The notes under the pieces were generated by a model. It was not told the DNA's origin, did not search any database, and was given only the letters and a program-made list of their open reading frames with translations. Below, piece after piece: positions 5,027-36,036 of a DNA stretch of 38,751 nt (its first letter is position 1; the number at the start of each line of letters is the position of its first letter). This stretch comes from a phage: the sequence record PZ465525.1. The stretch is one strand, 5' to 3'. Both the position numbers and the translations under genes were made by a program.

Positions 5027-7408
5027 ATGGCTCTAATTTCGCAATCCATTAAGAACTTGAAGGGGGGTATCAGCCAACAGCCTGACATCCTTCGCTATCC
5101 TGACCAAGGCTCTCGCCAAGTCAATGGGTGGTCTTCGGAGTCTGAGGGTCTTCAAAAGCGCCCTCCTATGGTGTTCATCAAGACCCTTGGCGACAAAGCC
5201 GCTTTGGGTCAGTCTCCGTACATCCACTTGATTAACCGTGACGAATATGAGCGGTACTACGTTGTGTTCACTGGAAGCGGTATCCGCGTGTTCGACCTTG
5301 CTGGTAACGAGAAGGCTGTCAAGTACAGCGCGAACAAAGCGTACATCACCACGGCCACCCCAAGGGAAGACCTTCGGATGGTAACGGTGGCTGACTACAC
5401 GTTCATCGTGAACAGGGACTACACGGTTGCTTCCGGCGGTTCCATCAACATGAGAGGGTTCAACCCTAAGCAGGACGCCTTGATTAACGTTCGAGGCGGC
5501 CAGTATGGACGAACTCTGCAAGTGATGATTAACGGTGGTACTCAGGCGACATACCAGATTCCAAATGGTGACAACCCTACGCACGTTCAGAATACCGATG
5601 CCCAATGGCTGGCAGAGGAGCTGGCCAAGCGGTTGCGAGCCAACCTCCCTACGTGGTCAGTCACAGTCGGCCAAGGGTACATCCATATCGTGGCACCTGC
5701 TGGTCAACAGATTGATTCCCTTGTGACGAAGGACGGTTACGCTGACCAGCTAATCAGCCCTGTGACTCACTACGCTCAGACCTTCACTAAGTTGCCGCTC
5801 AACGCTCCTGATGGGTACATCGTGAAGATTGTTGGGGACACCGCTAAGTCTGCCGACCAGTATTACGTGAAGTACGATGCGTCCCGTAAGGTCTGGTCTG
5901 AGGTTGTCGGGTGGGACGTTGAGGTTAACCTTCGGGCCGAGACGATGCCACATGCGCTCGTTCGGGCTGCTGATGGTAACTTCGAGTTCAAGACTCTGAG
6001 CTGGTCTGACAGGAAGTGTGGTGACAACGACACTAACCCGTGGCCCTCATTTGTTGACTCGACCATCAACGATGTGTTCTTCTTCCGTAACCGTCTTGGC
6101 TTCCTGACTGGCGAGAACATCGTGCTAAGTCGAACCGGTAAATACTTCAACTTCTTCCCTGCGTCCGTTGCGAACCTTAGCGATGATGACCCGATTGACG
6201 TTGCTGTGAGTGTTAACCGGATTTCCATCTTGAAGTACGCCGTTCCGTTCTCTGAGGAGCTGCTGATTTGGTCTGACGAGACTCAGTTCGTGTTGACCTC
6301 TGCGGGAACCTTAACGTCCCGTTCGGTTGAGCTGAACCTGACCACTCAGTTTGATGTGCAAGACCGAGCGCGTCCCTATGGGATTGGTCGTAACGTGTAC
6401 TTTGCGAGCCCACGGTCTAGCTTTACGTCCATCAGCCGTTACTATGCGGTGCAGGATGTAAGTTCCGTGAAGAACGCCGAGGACATTACCGCCCACGTCC
6501 CGAACTACATCCCGAATGGTGTGTTCGCAATCTGCGGCTCTGGCACCGAGAACTTCTGCTCAGTGTTGACCGATGGAGACCCTAGCAAGATTTTCATCTA
6601 CAAGTTCCTGTACCTCAACGAGGAGCTTCGCCAACAGTCTTGGTCTCACTGGGACTTTGGGCCGAACGTTCAGGTACTAGCTTGTCAAGCTATCGGGTCT
6701 GACATGTACGTGGTGATGCGGAACCAATACAACACCTTTATGTCTCGAATCTCTTTCACTAAGAACGCCATCGACATCATTGGGGAGCCTTACCGAGCCT
6801 ATCTGGACTTCAAGGTTGCCTACACGATTCCCGCTGGTACTTACAACGATGATACCTACGAGACAACCATCAACCTCTCGACCCTCTACGGAGCTCGTTT
6901 TGACCGTGGCAAGGTGACAGTTCTTGAGCCAGATGGTCGTGCCCACATCTTTGAAGACCCTGATGGTGGCTGGGCCAATGCGCCGCTGATTCGCCTAGCG
7001 GGTAACATGGAGGGCAAGAGGGTGTTCCTTGGGTTCAACTTCACGTTCCTTTACGAGTTCTCGAAGTTCCTCATTAAGCAAACCGCTGACGATGGCTCAA
7101 CGGCTACCGAGGACATTGGGCGACTTCAACTGCGAAGGGCTTGGGTGAACTACGAGGATTCCGGTACTTTTGACATCTACGTGGAGAACCAATCGTCAAA
7201 CTGGAAGTACACGATGGCTGGTGGCCGCTTGGGCTCCAACTCACTGAGGGCCAGTAAGTTGAACCTTGGCACGGGCCAGTACCGATTCCCTGTAGCGGGG
7301 AACGCCAAGTTCACTACTGTCTTAATCGCATCTGACGAGGCAACACCGCTGAACGTTATCGGCTGTGGCTGGGAAGGCAACTACCTGCGCCGGAGTTCCG
7401 GCATCTAA
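5027..7408 (+). CDS. 12: gp12 tail tubular protein B
   Basis: 793-aa ORF at the position and size of T7 gp12 (794 aa); RBS TAGGAGG. Confidence 0.95.
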   Translation: MALISQSIKNLKGGISQQPDILRYPDQGSRQVNGWSSESEGLQKRPPMVFIKTLGDKAALGQSPYIHLINRDEYERYYVVFTGSGIRVFDLAGNEKAVKYSANKAYITTATPREDLRMVTVADYTFIVNRDYTVASGGSINMRGFNPKQDALINVRGGQYGRTLQVMINGGTQATYQIPNGDNPTHVQNTDAQWLAEELAKRLRANLPTWSVTVGQGYIHIVAPAGQQIDSLVTKDGYADQLISPVTHYAQTFTKLPLNAPDGYIVKIVGDTAKSADQYYVKYDASRKVWSEVVGWDVEVNLRAETMPHALVRAADGNFEFKTLSWSDRKCGDNDTNPWPSFVDSTINDVFFFRNRLGFLTGENIVLSRTGKYFNFFPASVANLSDDDPIDVAVSVNRISILKYAVPFSEELLIWSDETQFVLTSAGTLTSRSVELNLTTQFDVQDRARPYGIGRNVYFASPRSSFTSISRYYAVQDVSSVKNAEDITAHVPNYIPNGVFAICGSGTENFCSVLTDGDPSKIFIYKFLYLNEELRQQSWSHWDFGPNVQVLACQAIGSDMYVVMRNQYNTFMSRISFTKNAIDIIGEPYRAYLDFKVAYTIPAGTYNDDTYETTINLSTLYGARFDRGKVTVLEPDGRAHIFEDPDGGWANAPLIRLAGNMEGKRVFLGFNFTFLYEFSKFLIKQTADDGSTATEDIGRLQLRRAWVNYEDSGTFDIYVENQSSNWKYTMAGGRLGSNSLRASKLNLGTGQYRFPVAGNAKFTTVLIASDEATPLNVIGCGWEGNYLRRSSGI

Positions 7409-7436
7409 CACTTTCTCCCTGTAGTTGGGTCAATAT

Positions 7437-7487: not shown

Positions 7488-7895
7488 ATGTTCATCCGTA
7501 ACACTACACCTAACGATTTCACTATGTTCACTCCGGCCTACCATGACATTCTTGAGGCTAAGGCTATAGGTATCACCCCAAGTTTCCCTGACGCTTCCGA
7601 GTGTGTCACGCTAGACCACGGTGGAACTCCTCTGGCTATCGGAGGTAACTGCGGTGATAGATGCTGGTTCGTAACGAGCGACCGAGCGTGGAAGCTCTCA
7701 AGGAAAGACAAGATGCGTTTCCGTAAGGCAATCATGGAGTACCGCGATAAGATGCTTGAGAAGTACCCTGTGCTCTGGAATTATGTGTGGGTGGGTAATA
7801 CCACTCACATTAGGTTCCTCAAGACTATCGGAGCGGTGTTCCATGAAGAATACACTCGTGATGGTCAGTTTCAACTATTCACGATAAGGAGGTGA
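7488..7895 (+). CDS. 13: gp13 internal virion protein A
   Basis: 135-aa ORF between phi13 and gene 14; RBS GGGGAGGG; size and position as T7 gp13. Confidence 0.85.
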   Translation: MFIRNTTPNDFTMFTPAYHDILEAKAIGITPSFPDASECVTLDHGGTPLAIGGNCGDRCWFVTSDRAWKLSRKDKMRFRKAIMEYRDKMLEKYPVLWNYVWVGNTTHIRFLKTIGAVFHEEYTRDGQFQLFTIRR

Positions 7896-7899
7896 CGCT

Positions 7900-8490
7900 A
7901 TGTGCTGGATGGCCGCAATTCCTATCACAATGGCGGGCGCTCAGGCCATTAGTGGTCAAGCCACTGAGGCCAACATGCTTGGTGCTCAGATTAACGCGGG
8001 TCGCCGTCAAGCGATGGAACTGTTAAAGCAGACCAACATTCAGAATGCGGACTTAACGCTACAAGCAAAGTCCAACCTTGAGGAAGCCTCTGCGGAACTG
8101 TCTACTCAGAACATGCAGAAGGTTCAAGCTATGGGTGCTATCCGTGCTGCTATCGGAGAGTCCAACCTTGAGGGCCGCTCAATGGAGCGAATCCAGAGAG
8201 TGACCGAGGGACAATTCGTCCGAGAGGCCAACATGGTCACTGAGAACTACCGCCGGAACTATCAGGCTATCTTCGCTCAACAGATTGGTGCTCACCAGTC
8301 TACCGTAAGTCAAATCAAAGAGATTTACAAAGGGGAGCAGAAAGGTAAGAGCAAGCTGCAACAGATTCTCGACCCGCTGGCTGCTGTCGGTAGTCAGGCT
8401 GCCTCTGCATATGCTTCTGGTTCGTTCGATGGGCCAGCCTTCGGAGGCAAGTTCTCTAGCAAGTCCACCGCGAAAGGAGGTAAGAAATGA
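7900..8490 (+). CDS. 14: gp14 internal virion (core) protein B
   Basis: 196-aa ORF, same length as T7 gp14; RBS AAGGAGG; ATGA overlap with gene 15. Confidence 0.9.
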   Translation: MCWMAAIPITMAGAQAISGQATEANMLGAQINAGRRQAMELLKQTNIQNADLTLQAKSNLEEASAELSTQNMQKVQAMGAIRAAIGESNLEGRSMERIQRVTEGQFVREANMVTENYRRNYQAIFAQQIGAHQSTVSQIKEIYKGEQKGKSKLQQILDPLAAVGSQAASAYASGSFDGPAFGGKFSSKSTAKGGKK

Positions 8491-13700: not shown

Positions 13701-14727
13701 ACTTGCAGCCCGCTCTCCGTGGACTAAGCTACTGAACGGCACGACCAACTACATTCTCGATGCTGCCCGTCAAGGGCTACTTGGGGATGTCATTGAGGCG
13801 ACCCTCAAAGGCAAGACAACCAAGTGGGAATCTGCTGGTTTCCTTCGAGGTGCCTCTGTGTCTCCTGAGCAGATGGCCGGAATCCGGTCACTAATTAAGG
13901 AACACATGGTTCGTGGAGAGGACGGTAAGTATTCCGTTAAGGACAAGCAGGCATTCAGTCTTGACCCACGGGCGATGGACTTGTGGCGACTGGCCGATAA
14001 GGTGGCCGATGAAGCGATACTGCGGCCACACAAGGTTTCCTTACAGGACTCCAAGGCGTTCGGTGCGCTTGGCAGGATGGCGTTGCAGTTCAAGACCTTC
14101 ACCATCAAGTCCCTGAACTCCAAGTTCCTGCGGACGTTCTATGATGGCTACAAGAACAACCGAGCGATTGACGCTGCACTCACTGGGATTATCTCAATGG
14201 GTCTTGCTGGCGGATACTACGCTATGGCTGCCCACGCTAAAGCCTACGCTCTACCTGAGGAGCGGCGAAAGGCGTACCTTGAGAAAGCACTGAACCCGAC
14301 CATGATTGCTCACGCTTCATTGTCCCGAAGTGCCCAACTGGGTGCCCCGATGGCGATGGTTGACCTTGTAGGTGGTGGCGTCTTTGGCTTTGAGTCCTCA
14401 AAGATGGTCCGTTCGTCAATCCTTCCGAAGGACACTTCGTACCAGCGCGACCCTAACAAGCCGTACACCGCTCAGGAGGTATTGGGAAACATGGGGTCTA
14501 ACCTGCTGGAACAGATGCCTTCGGCTGGCTTTGTGGCTAACGTTGGTGCTTCCGTGCTTAACGCTGCGGGAGTCGCTACGGCAACCAACAAGGCTACTGA
14601 GCAGGACTTTATGACTGGCTTGATGAACTCCTCTAAGGAGCTCGTACCGAATGACCCGTTGACCCAACAGTTAATCCTCAAAATATACGAAGCCAATGGC
14701 ATCAATTTGAAGGAGAAGCGCAAGTAA
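10762..14727 (+). CDS. 16: gp16 internal virion protein D with N-terminal lytic transglycosylase domain
   Basis: 1321-aa ORF (T7 gp16 is 1318 aa); N-terminal transglycosylase-like signature (...TESRFKPTAKS...GPLGMMQFTKAT...); stop TAA is the first three bases of phi17. Confidence 0.95.
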   Translation: MDKYDKNVPTEYDGLFQKAADANGVSYDLLRKVAWTESRFKPTAKSKTGPLGMMQFTKATATAMGLKVTGGDDDERLVPELAINAAAKHLATLVGKFDGDELKAALAYNQGEGRVGGKQLEAYARGDFASISEEGRNYLRSLMDVAKSPMAGQLESFGGITPKGKGIPADQAFAGITNDRKRKVGTDLPESTGFDVKGITQEEKADSFGHSFWKYHGETLDEYNERSTFFGFSDAAEAELSNSLLGVAARAARLDNGYDVFIDTITPTKWNSHVWTQEELEKIRTEVKNPAYINAVTGGSPENLDALIKLANENYGLDAKAADAGLGAKLSAGVLGAGVDPLSYVPVVGVTGKGFKLVNKAMVVGSQSAALNVASEGLRTSVAGGDADYAGAALGGFVFSAGMTALGDTLASRMSRTKPDAEFTNEFAGPAIRMEARETARNANSTDLSRVNTEGMEFKGEHNGVPYADFKAEEGAVVLHDGSVISAGNPINPKTLKEFSEVDPEKAAWGIRLGGLTEIGLKTLGSTNADVRRLASDLVRSPTGMESGSSGKFGATASDIYERLKGTDQRTYNELYAAMRVAMDGPEFSTGAAKMSREQARYEVYRRAALAIERPELQANLTKAELGVMNIIKRHFDTKRELMENPATFGRLDAKSIFPESRHKGTYVPHVYDRSAKQLMIQRYGAEGLQEAIARSWLTSYASRPEVKARVDEMLAELHGVKDVTPDMVTKHAMDKAYGISHSDHFSNSSIIDENIEGLVGIENNSFLEARNLFDSDLPVTLPDGQQFSVNDLRDFDMFRIMPAYDRRINGDIAIMGSTGKTAKELKDSIMELSKKAENNGQLKGEVEALKDTVKILTGRARRNHDTAFETALRSINDLGFFAKNAYMGAQNITEIAGMLATGNVRALGHGIPILWDTLYKSKPVSASELKEIHASLFGREIDQLIRPKRADIVQRLRESTDTGPLLANIVGTLKYSTQELAARSPWTKLLNGTTNYILDAARQGLLGDVIEATLKGKTTKWESAGFLRGASVSPEQMAGIRSLIKEHMVRGEDGKYSVKDKQAFSLDPRAMDLWRLADKVADEAILRPHKVSLQDSKAFGALGRMALQFKTFTIKSLNSKFLRTFYDGYKNNRAIDAALTGIISMGLAGGYYAMAAHAKAYALPEERRKAYLEKALNPTMIAHASLSRSAQLGAPMAMVDLVGGGVFGFESSKMVRSSILPKDTSYQRDPNKPYTAQEVLGNMGSNLLEQMPSAGFVANVGASVLNAAGVATATNKATEQDFMTGLMNSSKELVPNDPLTQQLILKIYEANGINLKEKRK

Positions 14728-14747
14728 TACGACTCACTATAGGGAGA
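14725..14747 (+). promoter_or_regulatory. Phage RNAP class III promoter (phi17)
   Basis: Exact consensus TAATACGACTCACTATAGGGAGA. Confidence 0.95.
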
Positions 14748-14797
14748 GGGAAGACCTCCTTCTCCCGATTTCTGATTCACTTTAAGAGGAGGTTTGC

Positions 14798-16660: not shown

Positions 16661-16671
16661 AGGACAACCTC

Positions 16672-16687
16672 AGGCCCACGGAAGGGC
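16672..16687 (+). promoter_or_regulatory. Short hairpin downstream of gene 17
   Basis: GGCCC-ACGGAA-GGGCC: perfect 5-bp inverted repeat with a 6-nt loop; possible RNA processing or stability element. Confidence 0.35.
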
Positions 16688-16692
16688 CATCT

Positions 16693-16715
16693 TTATGACT
16701 CACTATAGGAGACAT
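16693..16715 (+). promoter_or_regulatory. Degenerate phage-promoter-like element between genes 17 and 17.5
   Basis: TTTATGACTCACTATAGGAGACA: matches the consensus core but has -12 T for C, one G missing at +1..+3, and a weak AT-rich upstream part. Confidence 0.35.
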
Positions 16716-16722
16716 TTCGTGT

Positions 16723-19511: not shown

Positions 19512-19590
19512 TTTAGTCACGTAATGTGCATAAGGAAGCATAGGGAGCCAAGGAAGGCCCACTTGTAAGTTATTGATTCCTGAGGTGAAT

Positions 19591-21888: not shown

Positions 21889-22410
21889 ATGAAACGCAAT
21901 GCTAATGCTTATTACGAACTGCTGGCCGCTACTGTTGAGGCATTCAATGAGCGCATCCAAGAAGACAAGTTGACCGAGGATAGTGATTACCACGATGCCC
22001 TGCATAAAGTGGTTGACCGGATGGTTCCGAGCTACTACTGGGAAATCTTCATGGTCATGGCGGCTGACGGTATTGACGTTGAGTTTGACGATGATGGTCT
22101 GATGCCAGACACCAAGGATGTTACCCGAATCCTGCAAGCCCGCATCTACGAGGCGCTATATAACGATGTGCCCAACGATAGCGGGGTCGAATGGTACGAA
22201 GGCGAGGAGGAGGAGGAGCCCGAGGAGCCAAGCCAGTGGTATGTAATCAATGATGAAGAACACGGGAGCTTTGTGGTCTCCTTTCACGACTCACTAAAGG
22301 CAGCCATTGAGGCAGCCGATGAACGATACAATACGCTGGGCAAGCGGTGCCACGTTGAGGATGATACCAGCTCAGATGTGCTTTACAATCCGGTAACTGC
22401 TGACGAGTGA
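21889..22410 (+). CDS. ocr: Ocr-like DNA-mimic anti-restriction protein with a ~65-aa C-terminal extension
   Basis: 173 aa; residues ~30-100 (HDALHKVVDRMVPSYYWEIFMVMAADGIDVEFDDDGLMPDTKDVTRILQARIYEAL) align to T7 Ocr (117 aa, recalled); RBS CTGAGGTAACACACT-ATG is the T7 0.3-type initiation region. Confidence 0.85.
   Translation: MKRNANAYYELLAATVEAFNERIQEDKLTEDSDYHDALHKVVDRMVPSYYWEIFMVMAADGIDVEFDDDGLMPDTKDVTRILQARIYEALYNDVPNDSGVEWYEGEEEEEPEEPSQWYVINDEEHGSFVVSFHDSLKAAIEAADERYNTLGKRCHVEDDTSSDVLYNPVTADE
22281..22303 (+). promoter_or_regulatory. Promoter-like relic inside the Ocr-like coding sequence
   Basis: CTTTCACGACTCACTAAAGGCAG matches the consensus core ACGACTCACTA-AGG but lacks the TAATA upstream part; probably nonfunctional. 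Confidence 0.3.
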
Positions 22411-28110: not shown

Positions 28111-28133
28111 CTATAAGGCTCACTAAAGGAGAC
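28111..28133 (+). promoter_or_regulatory. Degenerate phage promoter-like element (phi1.6 position)
   Basis: CTATAAGGCTCACTAAAGGAGAC: CACTAAAGGAG core as in T7 phi1.6, but -12/-10 changed; activity uncertain. Confidence 0.4.
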
Positions 28134-32659: not shown

Positions 32660-32878
32660 ATGAGCATCATGAAAATCATCAAAGGCTTTGGCCGCATTGT
32701 CGTTCGCATGTATAACCACGAGGCTGCCCGCCTGAACAAGGTTGCCCGTGCGGAAGCCACTCTGGCCCGCGAGCTGGCCGAGCGTTCCAACAAGCTGAGC
32801 GCAAGCTCCATGAAGAACATCGATGAGGCCGCTAAGGTAGCCTCTCAGGCCCAAGAGCTGTCCAAGTTCTTCGCTTAA
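32660..32878 (+). CDS. 4.3: gp4.3-like small protein
   Basis: 72-aa ORF with RBS GAAGGAAG, at the T7 gene 4.3 position. Confidence 0.7.
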   Translation: MSIMKIIKGFGRIVVRMYNHEAARLNKVARAEATLARELAERSNKLSASSMKNIDEAAKVASQAQELSKFFA

Positions 32879-33299: not shown

Positions 33300-35258
33300 A
33301 TGATTGTCTCAGACATCGAATCAAACGGCCTACTTGAGACCACTACTAAATTCCATTGCGCGGTTATCTATGACTACAGTACAGGAGAATACAGCAAGTA
33401 TCGCCCTGTGGACTTTAATAAATACCTTGACGCATTAGAAGCTGAGGTAGCAAAGGGAGGACTCATAGTAGGACATAACTTCGCTAAATTTGACATCCCT
33501 GCGTTAACCAAGTTGGCTAAGTTGCAATTGAACCGAGAGTTCAACATTCCTCGTGAGAACTGTGTGGATACCCTCGTGCTGTCCAGACTGATTCACTCGA
33601 ACCTCAAGGACACCGATATGGGTCTCCTGCGCTCCGGTAAACTGCCGGGCAAACGCTACGGTTCCCACGCTCTGGAAGCATGGGGCTACCGCTTAGGCGA
33701 AATGAAGGGTGAGTACAAGGACGACTTCAAGGCTGCTCTTGAGGAGCAAGGTGAGGAGTACGTTGAGGGAATGGAGTGGCGCTCATTCAACGAGGACATG
33801 CTGGCCTATAACGTTCAGGACGTTGTGGTCACTAAGGCCCTCCTTGAGAAGCTACTTTCCGACAAGCACTACTTCAAGCCTGAGGTGGACTTCACGGATG
33901 TCTCTGCGGATACCTTCTGGATGGAGGCTATCGAGGCGATTGACGTGGAGCACCGAGCCGCTTGGTTGCTCGCTAAGCAGGAGCGCAACGGCTACCCGTT
34001 CAACACCAAGGCTATCGAAGACCTGTACGTTGAGCTGGCCTCTCGCCGCTCTGAGTTGCTGAAGCGACTGACCGAGACGTTCGGCTCTTGGTATCAGCCT
34101 AAGGGTGGCACCGAAATGTTCCTACACCCACGCACTGGTCAGCCGCTCCCGAAGTATCCGCGAGTGAAGACCCCGAAGGTCGGAGGCATCTTCAAGAAGC
34201 CCAAGAACAAAGCCCAGCGCGAAGGTCGTGAGCCCTGTGAGCTGGACACTCGGGACTTCGTTGCTGGTGCCGTTTACACTCCGGTGGAGCACGTTGTCTT
34301 CAACCCTTCGTCCCGCGACCACATCCAGAAGAAGCTCCAAGAGGCTGGCTGGGTGCCCGAGAAGTTCACCGATAAGGGTGCTCCGGTAGTGGACGACGAG
34401 GTGCTTGAAGGCGTTGTTGTGGACGACCCTGAGAAGCAAGCAGCCATCGACCTCATTAAGGAGTACCTGATGATTCAGAAGCGAATCGGTCAGAGTGCTG
34501 AGGGCGACAAGGCGTGGCTGCGCTACGTTGCGGAGGACGGTAAGATTCATGGTAGCGTTAACCCTAACGGTGCGGTTACTGGTCGTGCCACTCACGCCTT
34601 CCCGAACCTTGCGCAAATCCCAAGTGTTCGGTCTCCGTATGGCGAACAGTGCCGTGCTGCATTCGGGGCTGAACACCATCTTGATTACGTCACTGGGGAA
34701 CCTTGGGTTCAAGCTGGTATCGACGCATCCGGTCTTGAGCTGCGCTGCTTGGCCCACTTCATGGCTCGATTCGACAACGGCGAGTATGCCCATGAGATTC
34801 TGAACGGTGACATTCACACCAAGAACCAGTTGGCTGCCGAGCTGCCGACCCGAGACAACGCCAAGACCTTCATCTACGGTTTCCTCTATGGGGCCGGAGA
34901 CGAGAAGATTGGTCAGATTGTTGGTGCTGGTAAGGAACGCGGTAAGGAACTCAAGAAGAAATTCCTTGAGAATACCCCTGCGATTGCTGCGCTCCGTGAG
35001 TCCATCCAATCGACTCTCGTTGAGAGTTCCCAATGGGTGGCTGGTGAACAGCAAGTCAAGTGGAAGCGCCGTTGGATTAAGGGCATGGATGGCCGTAAGG
35101 TTCACGTCCGTAGCCCACACGCTGCGCTGAACACTGTGCTGCAATCCGCTGGTGCGCTTATCTGCAAGCTGTGGATTATCAAGACCGAGGAAATGCTCAT
35201 TGAGAAGGGCTACAAGCACGGCTGGGATGGAGACTTTGCGTACATGGCATGGGTGCAT
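33300..35258 (+). CDS. 5: gp5 DNA polymerase, exon 1 (codons 1-653)
   Basis: Near-identical to T7 DNA polymerase through ...GWDGDFAYMAWVH, then drops into 8 unrelated codons and a stop (35282); the real coding sequence resumes at 35861. Confidence 0.93.
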
Positions 35259-36016: not shown

Positions 36017-36036
36017 TACGACTCACTAAAGGAGAC
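36014..36036 (+). promoter_or_regulatory. Phage RNAP promoter overlapping the gene 5 stop codon (drives 5.5-5.7-5.9-6)
   Basis: TAATACGACTCACTAAAGGAGAC: class II-type variant (CACTAAAGGAG); the TAA stop of gene 5 is its first three bases. Confidence 0.8.

Follow-up and report, generated by a model that had tools for sequence, protein, structure and literature searches.

The weak class II promoters of bacteriophage T7 are those shut off late by T7 lysozyme. The class II promoters phi1.6 and phi4.3 have the start sequence GGAGAC, and phi4.7 reads CTATTC GACTCACTATA GGAGAT; at these three promoters the GGAG doubles as the Shine-Dalgarno (SD) sequence of the next gene, and the start codon follows +1 by 11–13 nt at phi1.5, phi1.6, phi4.3, and phi4.7. 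Promoter relics beside the tail-fibre gene (gene 17) have a known precedent in T3, the record of which carries an annotated, unused T7 promoter ahead of gene 17 (32757–32779). RNA hairpins in late transcripts are also known from T7 and T3, namely the RNase III sites (R18.5; annotated as features of 51–53 nt in T3 and phiSG-JL2) and the Tphi terminator. RNase III needs a duplex of roughly two helical turns. For CsrA/RsmE, the optimal site is (A/U)CANGGANG(U/A), the GGA of which lies in an apical hexaloop (PMC5864733), and the optimal distance between two CsrA sites is ~18 nt (PMC4894983).

Here we describe the gap between genes 17 and 17.5 of a T7-like phage, which is 62 nt long and holds a hairpin and a promoter-like element. 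The window (the whole stretch of DNA that was analysed, 38,751 bases) is a complete, circularly permuted genome of the genus Teseptimavirus, the closest database relatives of which are the Aeromonas phages avDM11-UST, PZL-Ah1, and KFSA9, Stenotrophomonas phage IME15, and Escherichia phage Ebrios, all ~95–96% identical across most of the genome; at 79% and 77%, respectively, Edwardsiella phage PVN09 and T7 are further removed. The holin is 100% identical to that of IME15, and an exact look-up of the tail-fibre protein matched no record. Because the RNA polymerase closely resembles that of T7 (Table 1) and the alignment of the two proteins shows conservation of its specificity loop and its AT-rich recognition loop, promoter data obtained with T7 should be transferable to this phage. 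Matches to the T7 consensus at 17 other sites in the window indicate that the phage uses promoters of T7 specificity.

Table 1. Positions of the features discussed, numbered along the window.
Feature	Position	Strand	Basis or remark
phi17 promoter, consensus	14725–14747	+	39.3 bits; comparison site
Gene 17, tail fibre, 620 aa	14798–16660	+	ORF list; stop TAA 16658–16660
Conserved stem-loop GGCCC-ACGGAA-GGGCC	16673–16688	+	Candidate CsrA/RsmA-type binding hairpin
Right-hand junction of tail-fibre module exchange	16691–16697	.	In or beside shared CTTTA(C/T)GA
T7-type promoter-like element, -17 to +6	16691–16713	+	CTTTAT GACTCACTATA GGAGAC; predicted +1 = G16708
GGAG, promoter +1 to +4 and holin SD-like sequence	16708–16711	+	11 nt before ATG
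Gene 17.5, class II holin, 67 aa	16723–16926	+	ORF list; Pfam PF10746 on identical products
Second hairpin copy GCC-AAGGAA-GGC	19547–19558 (cluster 19534–19558)	+	Between gene 19 and phiOR
Phage RNA polymerase gene, 883 aa	23653–26304	+	89% identical to T7 RNAP, gapless alignment

Sequence, score, and predicted strength of the promoter-like element

The element is composed of CTTTAT (-17 to -12), GACTCACTATA (-11 to -1), and GGAGAC (+1 to +6). Its core is identical to the T7-type core at 11 of 11 positions, including the specificity positions -11 to -7, and the whole element departs from the consensus TAATACGACTCACTATAGGGAGA by five differences, that is, -17 T>C, -16 A>T, -15 A>T, -12 C>T, and the loss of one G of GGG (+3). 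The upstream half thus agrees with TAATAC at 2 of 6 positions; 4 of the 5 bases at -17 to -13 are still A or T. The preliminary description of this DNA had recognized the retained core, the T at -12, and the missing G, all of which we found, and its list of defects was short by the CTT at -17 to -15. The 13-mer GACTCACTATAGG occurs in 8 copies in the window, every one of them on the + strand, and has 30 near matches there, more than in any shuffle; since its exact occurrence is expected by chance only ~0.001 times per window (from the window length and 4^13), the element is no chance match.

To rank the element, we used a weight matrix trained solely on the 17 annotated promoters of T7, on which those promoters themselves score 26.4–39.3 bits and the 15 clear promoters of the window 28.8–39.3 bits. 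The element scored 18.5 bits and ranked 16 of ~77,000 positions in the window, 8 bits under the weakest T7 promoter, whereas the best background position reached 10.7 bits. It is, therefore, in a grey tier, far from chance, yet under every accepted T7 promoter. This tier also holds two doubtful sites, 22288 and 28117, with 17.2 bits each. The former (22282–22304; TTTCAC GACTCACTAAA GGCAGC) is an early-region site ahead of the kinase gene and reads TATTAC GACTCACTAGA GGCAGC in IME15, KFSA9, Ebrios, PZL-Ah1, and avDM11; neither T7 nor PVN09 yielded a counterpart. The latter (28111–28133; CTATAA GGCTCACTAAA GGAGAC), a weak promoter, appears to be a hybrid that arose by deletion between two promoters. 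Promoters of the parental types are present 114 bp apart, flanking a small ORF, in IME15 (positions 7815–7837 and 7929–7951 of its record, L174), PZL-Ah1, and avDM11, and KFSA9 keeps the second of them only.

The element is intergenic and co-directional with the holin gene, with +1 located 15 nt ahead of the holin ATG, compared with the 11–13 nt at the T7 promoters named above. The GGAG of the promoter is the sole SD sequence of the holin gene, as read from the window sequence, and the same overlap of promoter and ribosome-binding site (RBS) recurs at 36020 and 28117. This layout makes the element class II-like, as does its start sequence GGAGAC, which is also that of phi1.6 and phi4.3. It shares with phi4.7 the core (in its TATA form), C at -17, T at -16, and the start GGAGA, and differs from it only at -15, -13, -12, and +6; at -13 the window element, unlike phi4.7, has the consensus base. 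In contrast to the T7 class II promoters, it is a late-region element, located between genes 17 and 17.5, carries extra mismatches at -15 and -12, and is polymorphic, with knockout alleles in its lineage. The proposal that it boosts lysis-gene expression late was not supported, given this class II-like layout and start sequence. No promoter between genes 17 and 17.5 is annotated in the records of T7, T3, or phiSG-JL2, and the statement that T7 has none here agrees with the T7 record, in which no phage promoter is annotated between phi17 and phiOR and the corresponding sequence holds a hairpin and no promoter motif. The T at -12 creates an ATG (16694), which was judged irrelevant, since it has no SD sequence and is not in the reading frame of the holin.

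Transcripts that enter gene 17.5 by read-through of gene 17 come mainly from phi17, which is invariant across IME15, KFSA9, Ebrios, PZL-Ah1, PVN09, and T7. As a separate observation, a 10-bp hairpin (GGGAGAGGGAAGACCTCCTTCTCCC, 14742–14766) begins at the +1 of phi17, so that transcripts from phi17 would carry a stable stem-loop at their very 5' end; similar-looking sequences follow phi17 in the relatives.

The strength of the element was estimated from published in vitro measurements on barcoded T7 promoter variants, in which the wild type has a value of ~169 (PMC5937735; Komura 2018, file S2). The single mutants that correspond to the upstream changes have values of 149 (-17 T>C), 114.5 (-16 A>T), 115.7 (-15 A>T), and 99.1 (-12 C>T), each retaining 59–88% of the wild-type activity. 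The product of the four effects is ~24% of wild type if they are independent, in a data set that has one barcode per variant, stops at +2, and lacks the exact four-fold mutant of the window. In the same set, a multi-mutant with CTAATC ahead of the core was measured at 24%, and 12–24% is kept both by variants with T-rich replacements at -16/-15 and by those mutated at several upstream-half positions while the core is intact. On the other hand, 97% of all multi-substituted variants have <1% activity, the active ones carrying 2.4 substitutions on average, and the -7 C>A single mutant has a value of 0.054 versus 169, or 0.03% of wild type (PMC5937735). The effect of the missing G at +3 may be judged by analogy with the natural class II promoters. 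Two promoters that otherwise match the consensus, one at the phi10 position in PVN09 and one at the phi1.3 position in KFSA9, likewise have T at -12.

Allele states and the junction of the tail-fibre exchange

We compared the element in 13 genomes, which were the window, six GenBank phages (KFSA9, IME15, PZL-Ah1, PVN09, avDM11, and Ebrios), and six Logan/NCBI assemblies encoding the identical holin (referred to by their L numbers). In each of the 12 other genomes of this IME15/Ebrios/KFSA9 lineage that were obtained, the element immediately precedes the holin start. An intact core followed by GGGAGA is present in 5 of the 13 (IME15, PZL-Ah1, PVN09, L182, and L183), one G is missing, giving GGAGAC, in 4 (the window, KFSA9, L186/L187, and L191), and the remaining 4 (Ebrios, avDM11, L184, and L189) have C>A at -7, with an additional G>T at +1 in Ebrios. 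The one-G deletion that had been proposed is thus real relative to the ancestral GGGAGA, which is kept in the outgroup PVN09 as well as in IME15, PZL-Ah1, L182, and L183. The C-to-T change at -12 was likewise borne out, the T being private to the window (1 of 13), whereas the CTT at -17 to -15 is common to all 13 genomes. The assembly of avDM11-UST (L179; OP380607) is without orthologues of five class III promoters and has its RNA polymerase gene split into five ORFs, and we therefore gave its evidence little weight; its portal gene is also fused to downstream sequence, and all of these defects are probably artefacts of assembly or trimming.

With 0.03% activity for -7 C>A, the copy of the element is dead in a third of the lineage. 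The strong promoters phi6.5, phi9, phi10, phi13, phi17, and phiOR, like most class II promoters, have invariant cores in these genomes, so that the three allele states of the element set it apart from the conservation seen in functional promoters. Such drifting orthologues beside invariant strong promoters indicate a real promoter homologue under weak or no purifying selection. Furthermore, because GG(G)AG is the only SD sequence of the holin gene and GAC TCA CTA TAG forms the end of a small ORF in part of the lineage, the presence of the core is no proof of selection for a promoter, and GG(G)AGA may be kept purely as the holin RBS. A pattern scan of IMG/VR for the promoter plus leader returned IME15 alone, with otherwise only chance matches in unrelated contigs, and a metagenome scan for the holin leader returned two chance matches in a GC-rich bacterial contig. 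A literature search yielded nothing on a promoter before gene 17.5, nor on the promoters of IME15, PZL-Ah1, or KFSA9.

The element coincides with a break in homology. By blastn against IME15, Ebrios, PVN09, and T7, gene 17 from ~15250/15712 to its 3' end is a swapped module, high identity ending after 15249 for IME15, PVN09, and T7 and after 15712 for Ebrios. Megablast and blastn matches to IME15, Ebrios, PVN09, avDM11, and PZL-Ah1 resume at 16691 or 16697 with 94–97% identity; for IME15, Ebrios, and PVN09, this compares with no identity or 67% to the left of that point. Two states are found to the left of the element, namely the hairpin (the window, KFSA9, L182, L186/L187, and L189) and an ORF of 38–40 codons (IME15, PZL-Ah1, PVN09, L183, L184, L191, Ebrios, and avDM11). 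Each of them is paired with at least two of the promoter alleles, a pattern suggestive of recurrent exchange at the element or close to it. In other phages, the sequence after the hairpin is often CTTTA, as in GACTTTATGAG of the phage sequence L065; the CTTTAT of the window may therefore derive partly from the donor, and the joint would then lie within a CTTTA microhomology.

The small ORF (MALETSQVGDQLLWALPVGGAIATDIVAIQFMGLTL...; 34813–34935 in the IME15 record, L174) ends at the TAG within the TATAG of the promoter and has counterparts in L003, L005, L006, L007, L183, L184, and L191. It is frameshifted in PVN09 and in the Logan assembly ERR11042439, which makes its coding status doubtful.

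The hairpin downstream of gene 17

The small hairpin that had been reported just after gene 17 is present exactly as described, with its arms at 16673–16677 and 16684–16688 and the loop at 16678–16683, and starts 12 nt past the stop codon. Its RNA folds with -10.9 kcal/mol and accounts for 99% of the ensemble; the fold of the whole 101-nt region is unremarkable (z = -1.0), the small hairpin being the sole stable part. T7 has the equivalent AGTCC-ACGGAT-GGACT at the same place. To assess its conservation, we gathered 19 distinct versions from IMG/VR and from GenBank phages of the T7/T3 type, in which 4 of the 5 stem pairs covary, with changes on both sides. Of the cells, 91.6% were paired compared with 78% in shuffles (0 of 500 shuffles as high), and only 14–47% when the partner strand was slid. 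The loop with its closing pair is CANGGANG, that is, C-A-N-G-G-A-N-G, in 19 of 19 versions, with the columns C7, A8, G10, G11, A12, and G14 invariant, under a search pattern that forced A-N-GGA-N and left the C-G closing pair free. Thus, the hairpin is an element separate from the promoter and older than it, conserved across T7/T3-like phages including T7. It is annotated in none of the T7, T3, and phiSG-JL2 records, the same being true of the second copy described below, and a literature search yielded nothing on a hairpin after gene 17.

The hairpin lies upstream of the holin SD sequence, the distance from the GGA of its loop to that of the SD being 14–21 nt in 21 sequences of the T7/T3 type and 28–29 nt in promoter-bearing genomes (28 in the window), where the spacing is wider because the promoter lies between the two. 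The second copy is accompanied by two more GGA motifs, at 19534 and 19544. It was present in all 9 genomes checked, with counterparts in T7 (39163–39180), T3, phiSG-JL2, PVN09, IME15, Ebrios, and PZL-Ah1, and its stems covary (GACC/GGTC, GGCC/GGCC, and GCC/GGC). Clusters of this kind span 39135–39180 in T7 (L093) and ~7370–7410 in T3 (L192), and the distance from the first to the last GGA is 17–18 nt in T3, T7, and the window.

The preliminary description had also raised RNase III processing at the hairpin, for which we found no support. Although both are RNA hairpins of late transcripts, as is the Tphi terminator, the R18.5 features are far longer than the window hairpin, which has 16 nt, a 5-bp stem around which nothing longer folds, and no conserved U run. 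The hairpin resembles the sites bound with high affinity by CsrA/RsmE (the hcnA RBS, the flaA leader, and the Rsm/Csr sRNAs), with which it shares CANGGANG in all versions; GGA is located in the loop of a short hairpin, as C-ACGGAA-G (PMC5864733; PMC4894983), and a second GGA is found at the SD sequence. The spacing of 14–21 nt in T7/T3-type sequences fits the ~18 nt that are optimal for a CsrA dimer bridging two sites (PMC4894983), whereas that in the window exceeds it. The flanks also differ, being C/G in the phage hairpin, owing to its longer stem, and A/U in the CsrA/RsmE optimum. A search of the whole window against Rfam at gathering thresholds gave no match, and nothing above noise emerged from permissive scans of the two hairpin regions (RsmV, 9.7 bits against a gathering score of 100); a literature search found no link of CsrA to T7-like phages. 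It is only tentatively, on the level of the motif and with a distinctly minor chance of being right, that we propose the hairpin as an unannotated conserved cis-element of T7/T3-like phages through which CsrA, a global regulator of the host, would repress the holin or be titrated. If so, CsrA would bridge the hairpin and the SD sequence and repress translation of the holin, so that the timing of lysis would be tied to host physiology; alternatively, late transcripts would titrate CsrA. In the window, hairpin-less transcripts from the weak promoter would escape this control.

In four T3-like IMG/VR sequences (L160, L163, L158, and L125), we also observed a further ATG, which has an AAGGA of its own and overlaps the hairpin (AAGGACAACACACAATGACCACGGATGGTC...); it lies ~40 nt before the start of the holin, 12 codons upstream and in frame. 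It is missing from T7 and the window. In the T3-like phages, it might give rise to an N-terminally extended holin, as in the dual-start pairs of holin and antiholin.

Origin and significance of the locus

We consider it most probable (roughly 60%) that two unrelated elements were joined here by recombination and that the promoter is a lineage-specific class II-style unit of promoter and RBS, which is weak and little selected. The element would then be the window allele of a lineage-specific promoter for the phage RNA polymerase, which could be named 'phi17.5', with a CTT at -17 to -15 that is common to the whole lineage, a deletion of the +3 G that is also found in three relatives, and a private -12 C>T. 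Its residual firing is predicted to be weak, roughly a tenth to a quarter of that of a consensus promoter in vitro. The transcript would begin with GGAGAC at G16708 and would be a minor, hairpin-less RNA for genes 17.5 to 19.5, adding to the read-through from phi17. From the allele states, set beside the invariant strong promoters, we infer little or no purifying selection on 'phi17.5', which coincides with the right-hand junction of the tail-fibre swap, and the hairpin would have arrived with the 3' end of the swapped module. The independence and conservation of the hairpin, the role of GGAG as the only SD sequence of the holin gene, and the position of the promoter at a recombination junction had been missed in the preliminary description.

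That description had left a choice between a weak promoter and a decaying relic, which the grey-tier score, the drifting orthologues, and the -7 C>A in 4 of 13 genomes show to be the right alternatives. A dead relic, on which no meaningful initiation occurs and which persists as the GGAG of the holin RBS and for want of time for its erasure, is a less probable explanation that still has an appreciable chance. It would account for five departures from the consensus, a score under all annotated promoters, and the tolerance of the -7 knockout in the lineage; the window copy is, moreover, the most mutated of the C-7 alleles owing to its private -12 T, and few multi-substituted variants in the in vitro data remain active at all. 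However, the four upstream changes are individually mild in those data, upstream multi-mutants keep measurable activity, the critical block from -11 to -5 and the GG start are intact, and a natural T7 promoter, phi4.7, has the same C-17, T-16, and GGAGA start. We regard it as unlikely that the element serves mainly as a short, conserved patch of homology which, together with the conserved 5' part of gene 17 or phi17, allows exchange of the tail fibre, any promoter activity being incidental. The homology breaks exactly at the element, both left-hand states (hairpin and small ORF) are paired with all three promoter alleles, site 28117 resembles a promoter-to-promoter deletion hybrid, and T3 has its unused T7 promoter before gene 17. 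Nevertheless, any conserved sequence beside a hypervariable gene looks like a boundary, 17–23 bp are short for homologous exchange, and the origin of the element in one lineage only would be left unexplained. The T3 relic and the window element are alike in being phage-promoter sequences that flank the tail-fibre gene and are explained by recombination, not by need; they differ in that the specificity of the T3 relic does not suit the polymerase of its own phage and the relic lies on the opposite side of gene 17, whereas the window element has the right specificity and is merely weakened.

It is very improbable that the hairpin and the T-rich run after it stop or process read-through transcripts, whether as an intrinsic terminator, a T7 class I or II terminator, or an RNase III site, and that the promoter restarts transcription of the lysis and packaging genes. 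A simple scan did list the hairpin as terminator-like, with the tail ATCTTTAT, but such matches are not enriched in the window (5 found versus 4.9 expected), the stem is no longer than 5 bp, and the T run is not continuous. ATCTGTT is the pause signal of T7 class II. Within the locus, CATCTTTAT agrees with it at 5 of 7 positions, and we rejected this candidate as a partial match confined to genomes of the window type. The hairpins of T7/T3-like phages are followed by CTCTCAAGG or CTCAACAAT, without a T run, which argues that termination is not the conserved function; the annotated RNase III sites of the relatives are stem-loops of another size, as described above, and most promoter-bearing members of the lineage have no hairpin. 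A chance resemblance to a promoter, in favor of which only the sub-threshold score can be cited, is effectively refuted by the exact 13-mer, the placement of all its copies on one strand, the number of near matches, and the conservation of the element at the same position in 12 other genomes.

Taken together, the promoter would be a new, lineage-specific member of a well-known class, probably weakly active and dispensable, and, as one more promoter of the T7 type, of small weight for the biology of the phage. It nonetheless provides a clean natural example of a promoter that was born, reused as an RBS, and degraded in several independent ways at the junction of a host-range module, and it could be of use in annotating T7-like therapeutic phages and in swapping tail fibres within the IME15 lineage. 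The hairpin could be of greater weight. T7 is among the best-studied genomes, yet a covarying stem-loop with an invariant loop is absent from the annotation of T7, T3, and phiSG-JL2. If this hairpin binds CsrA, host control of the timing of T7 lysis would become directly testable.
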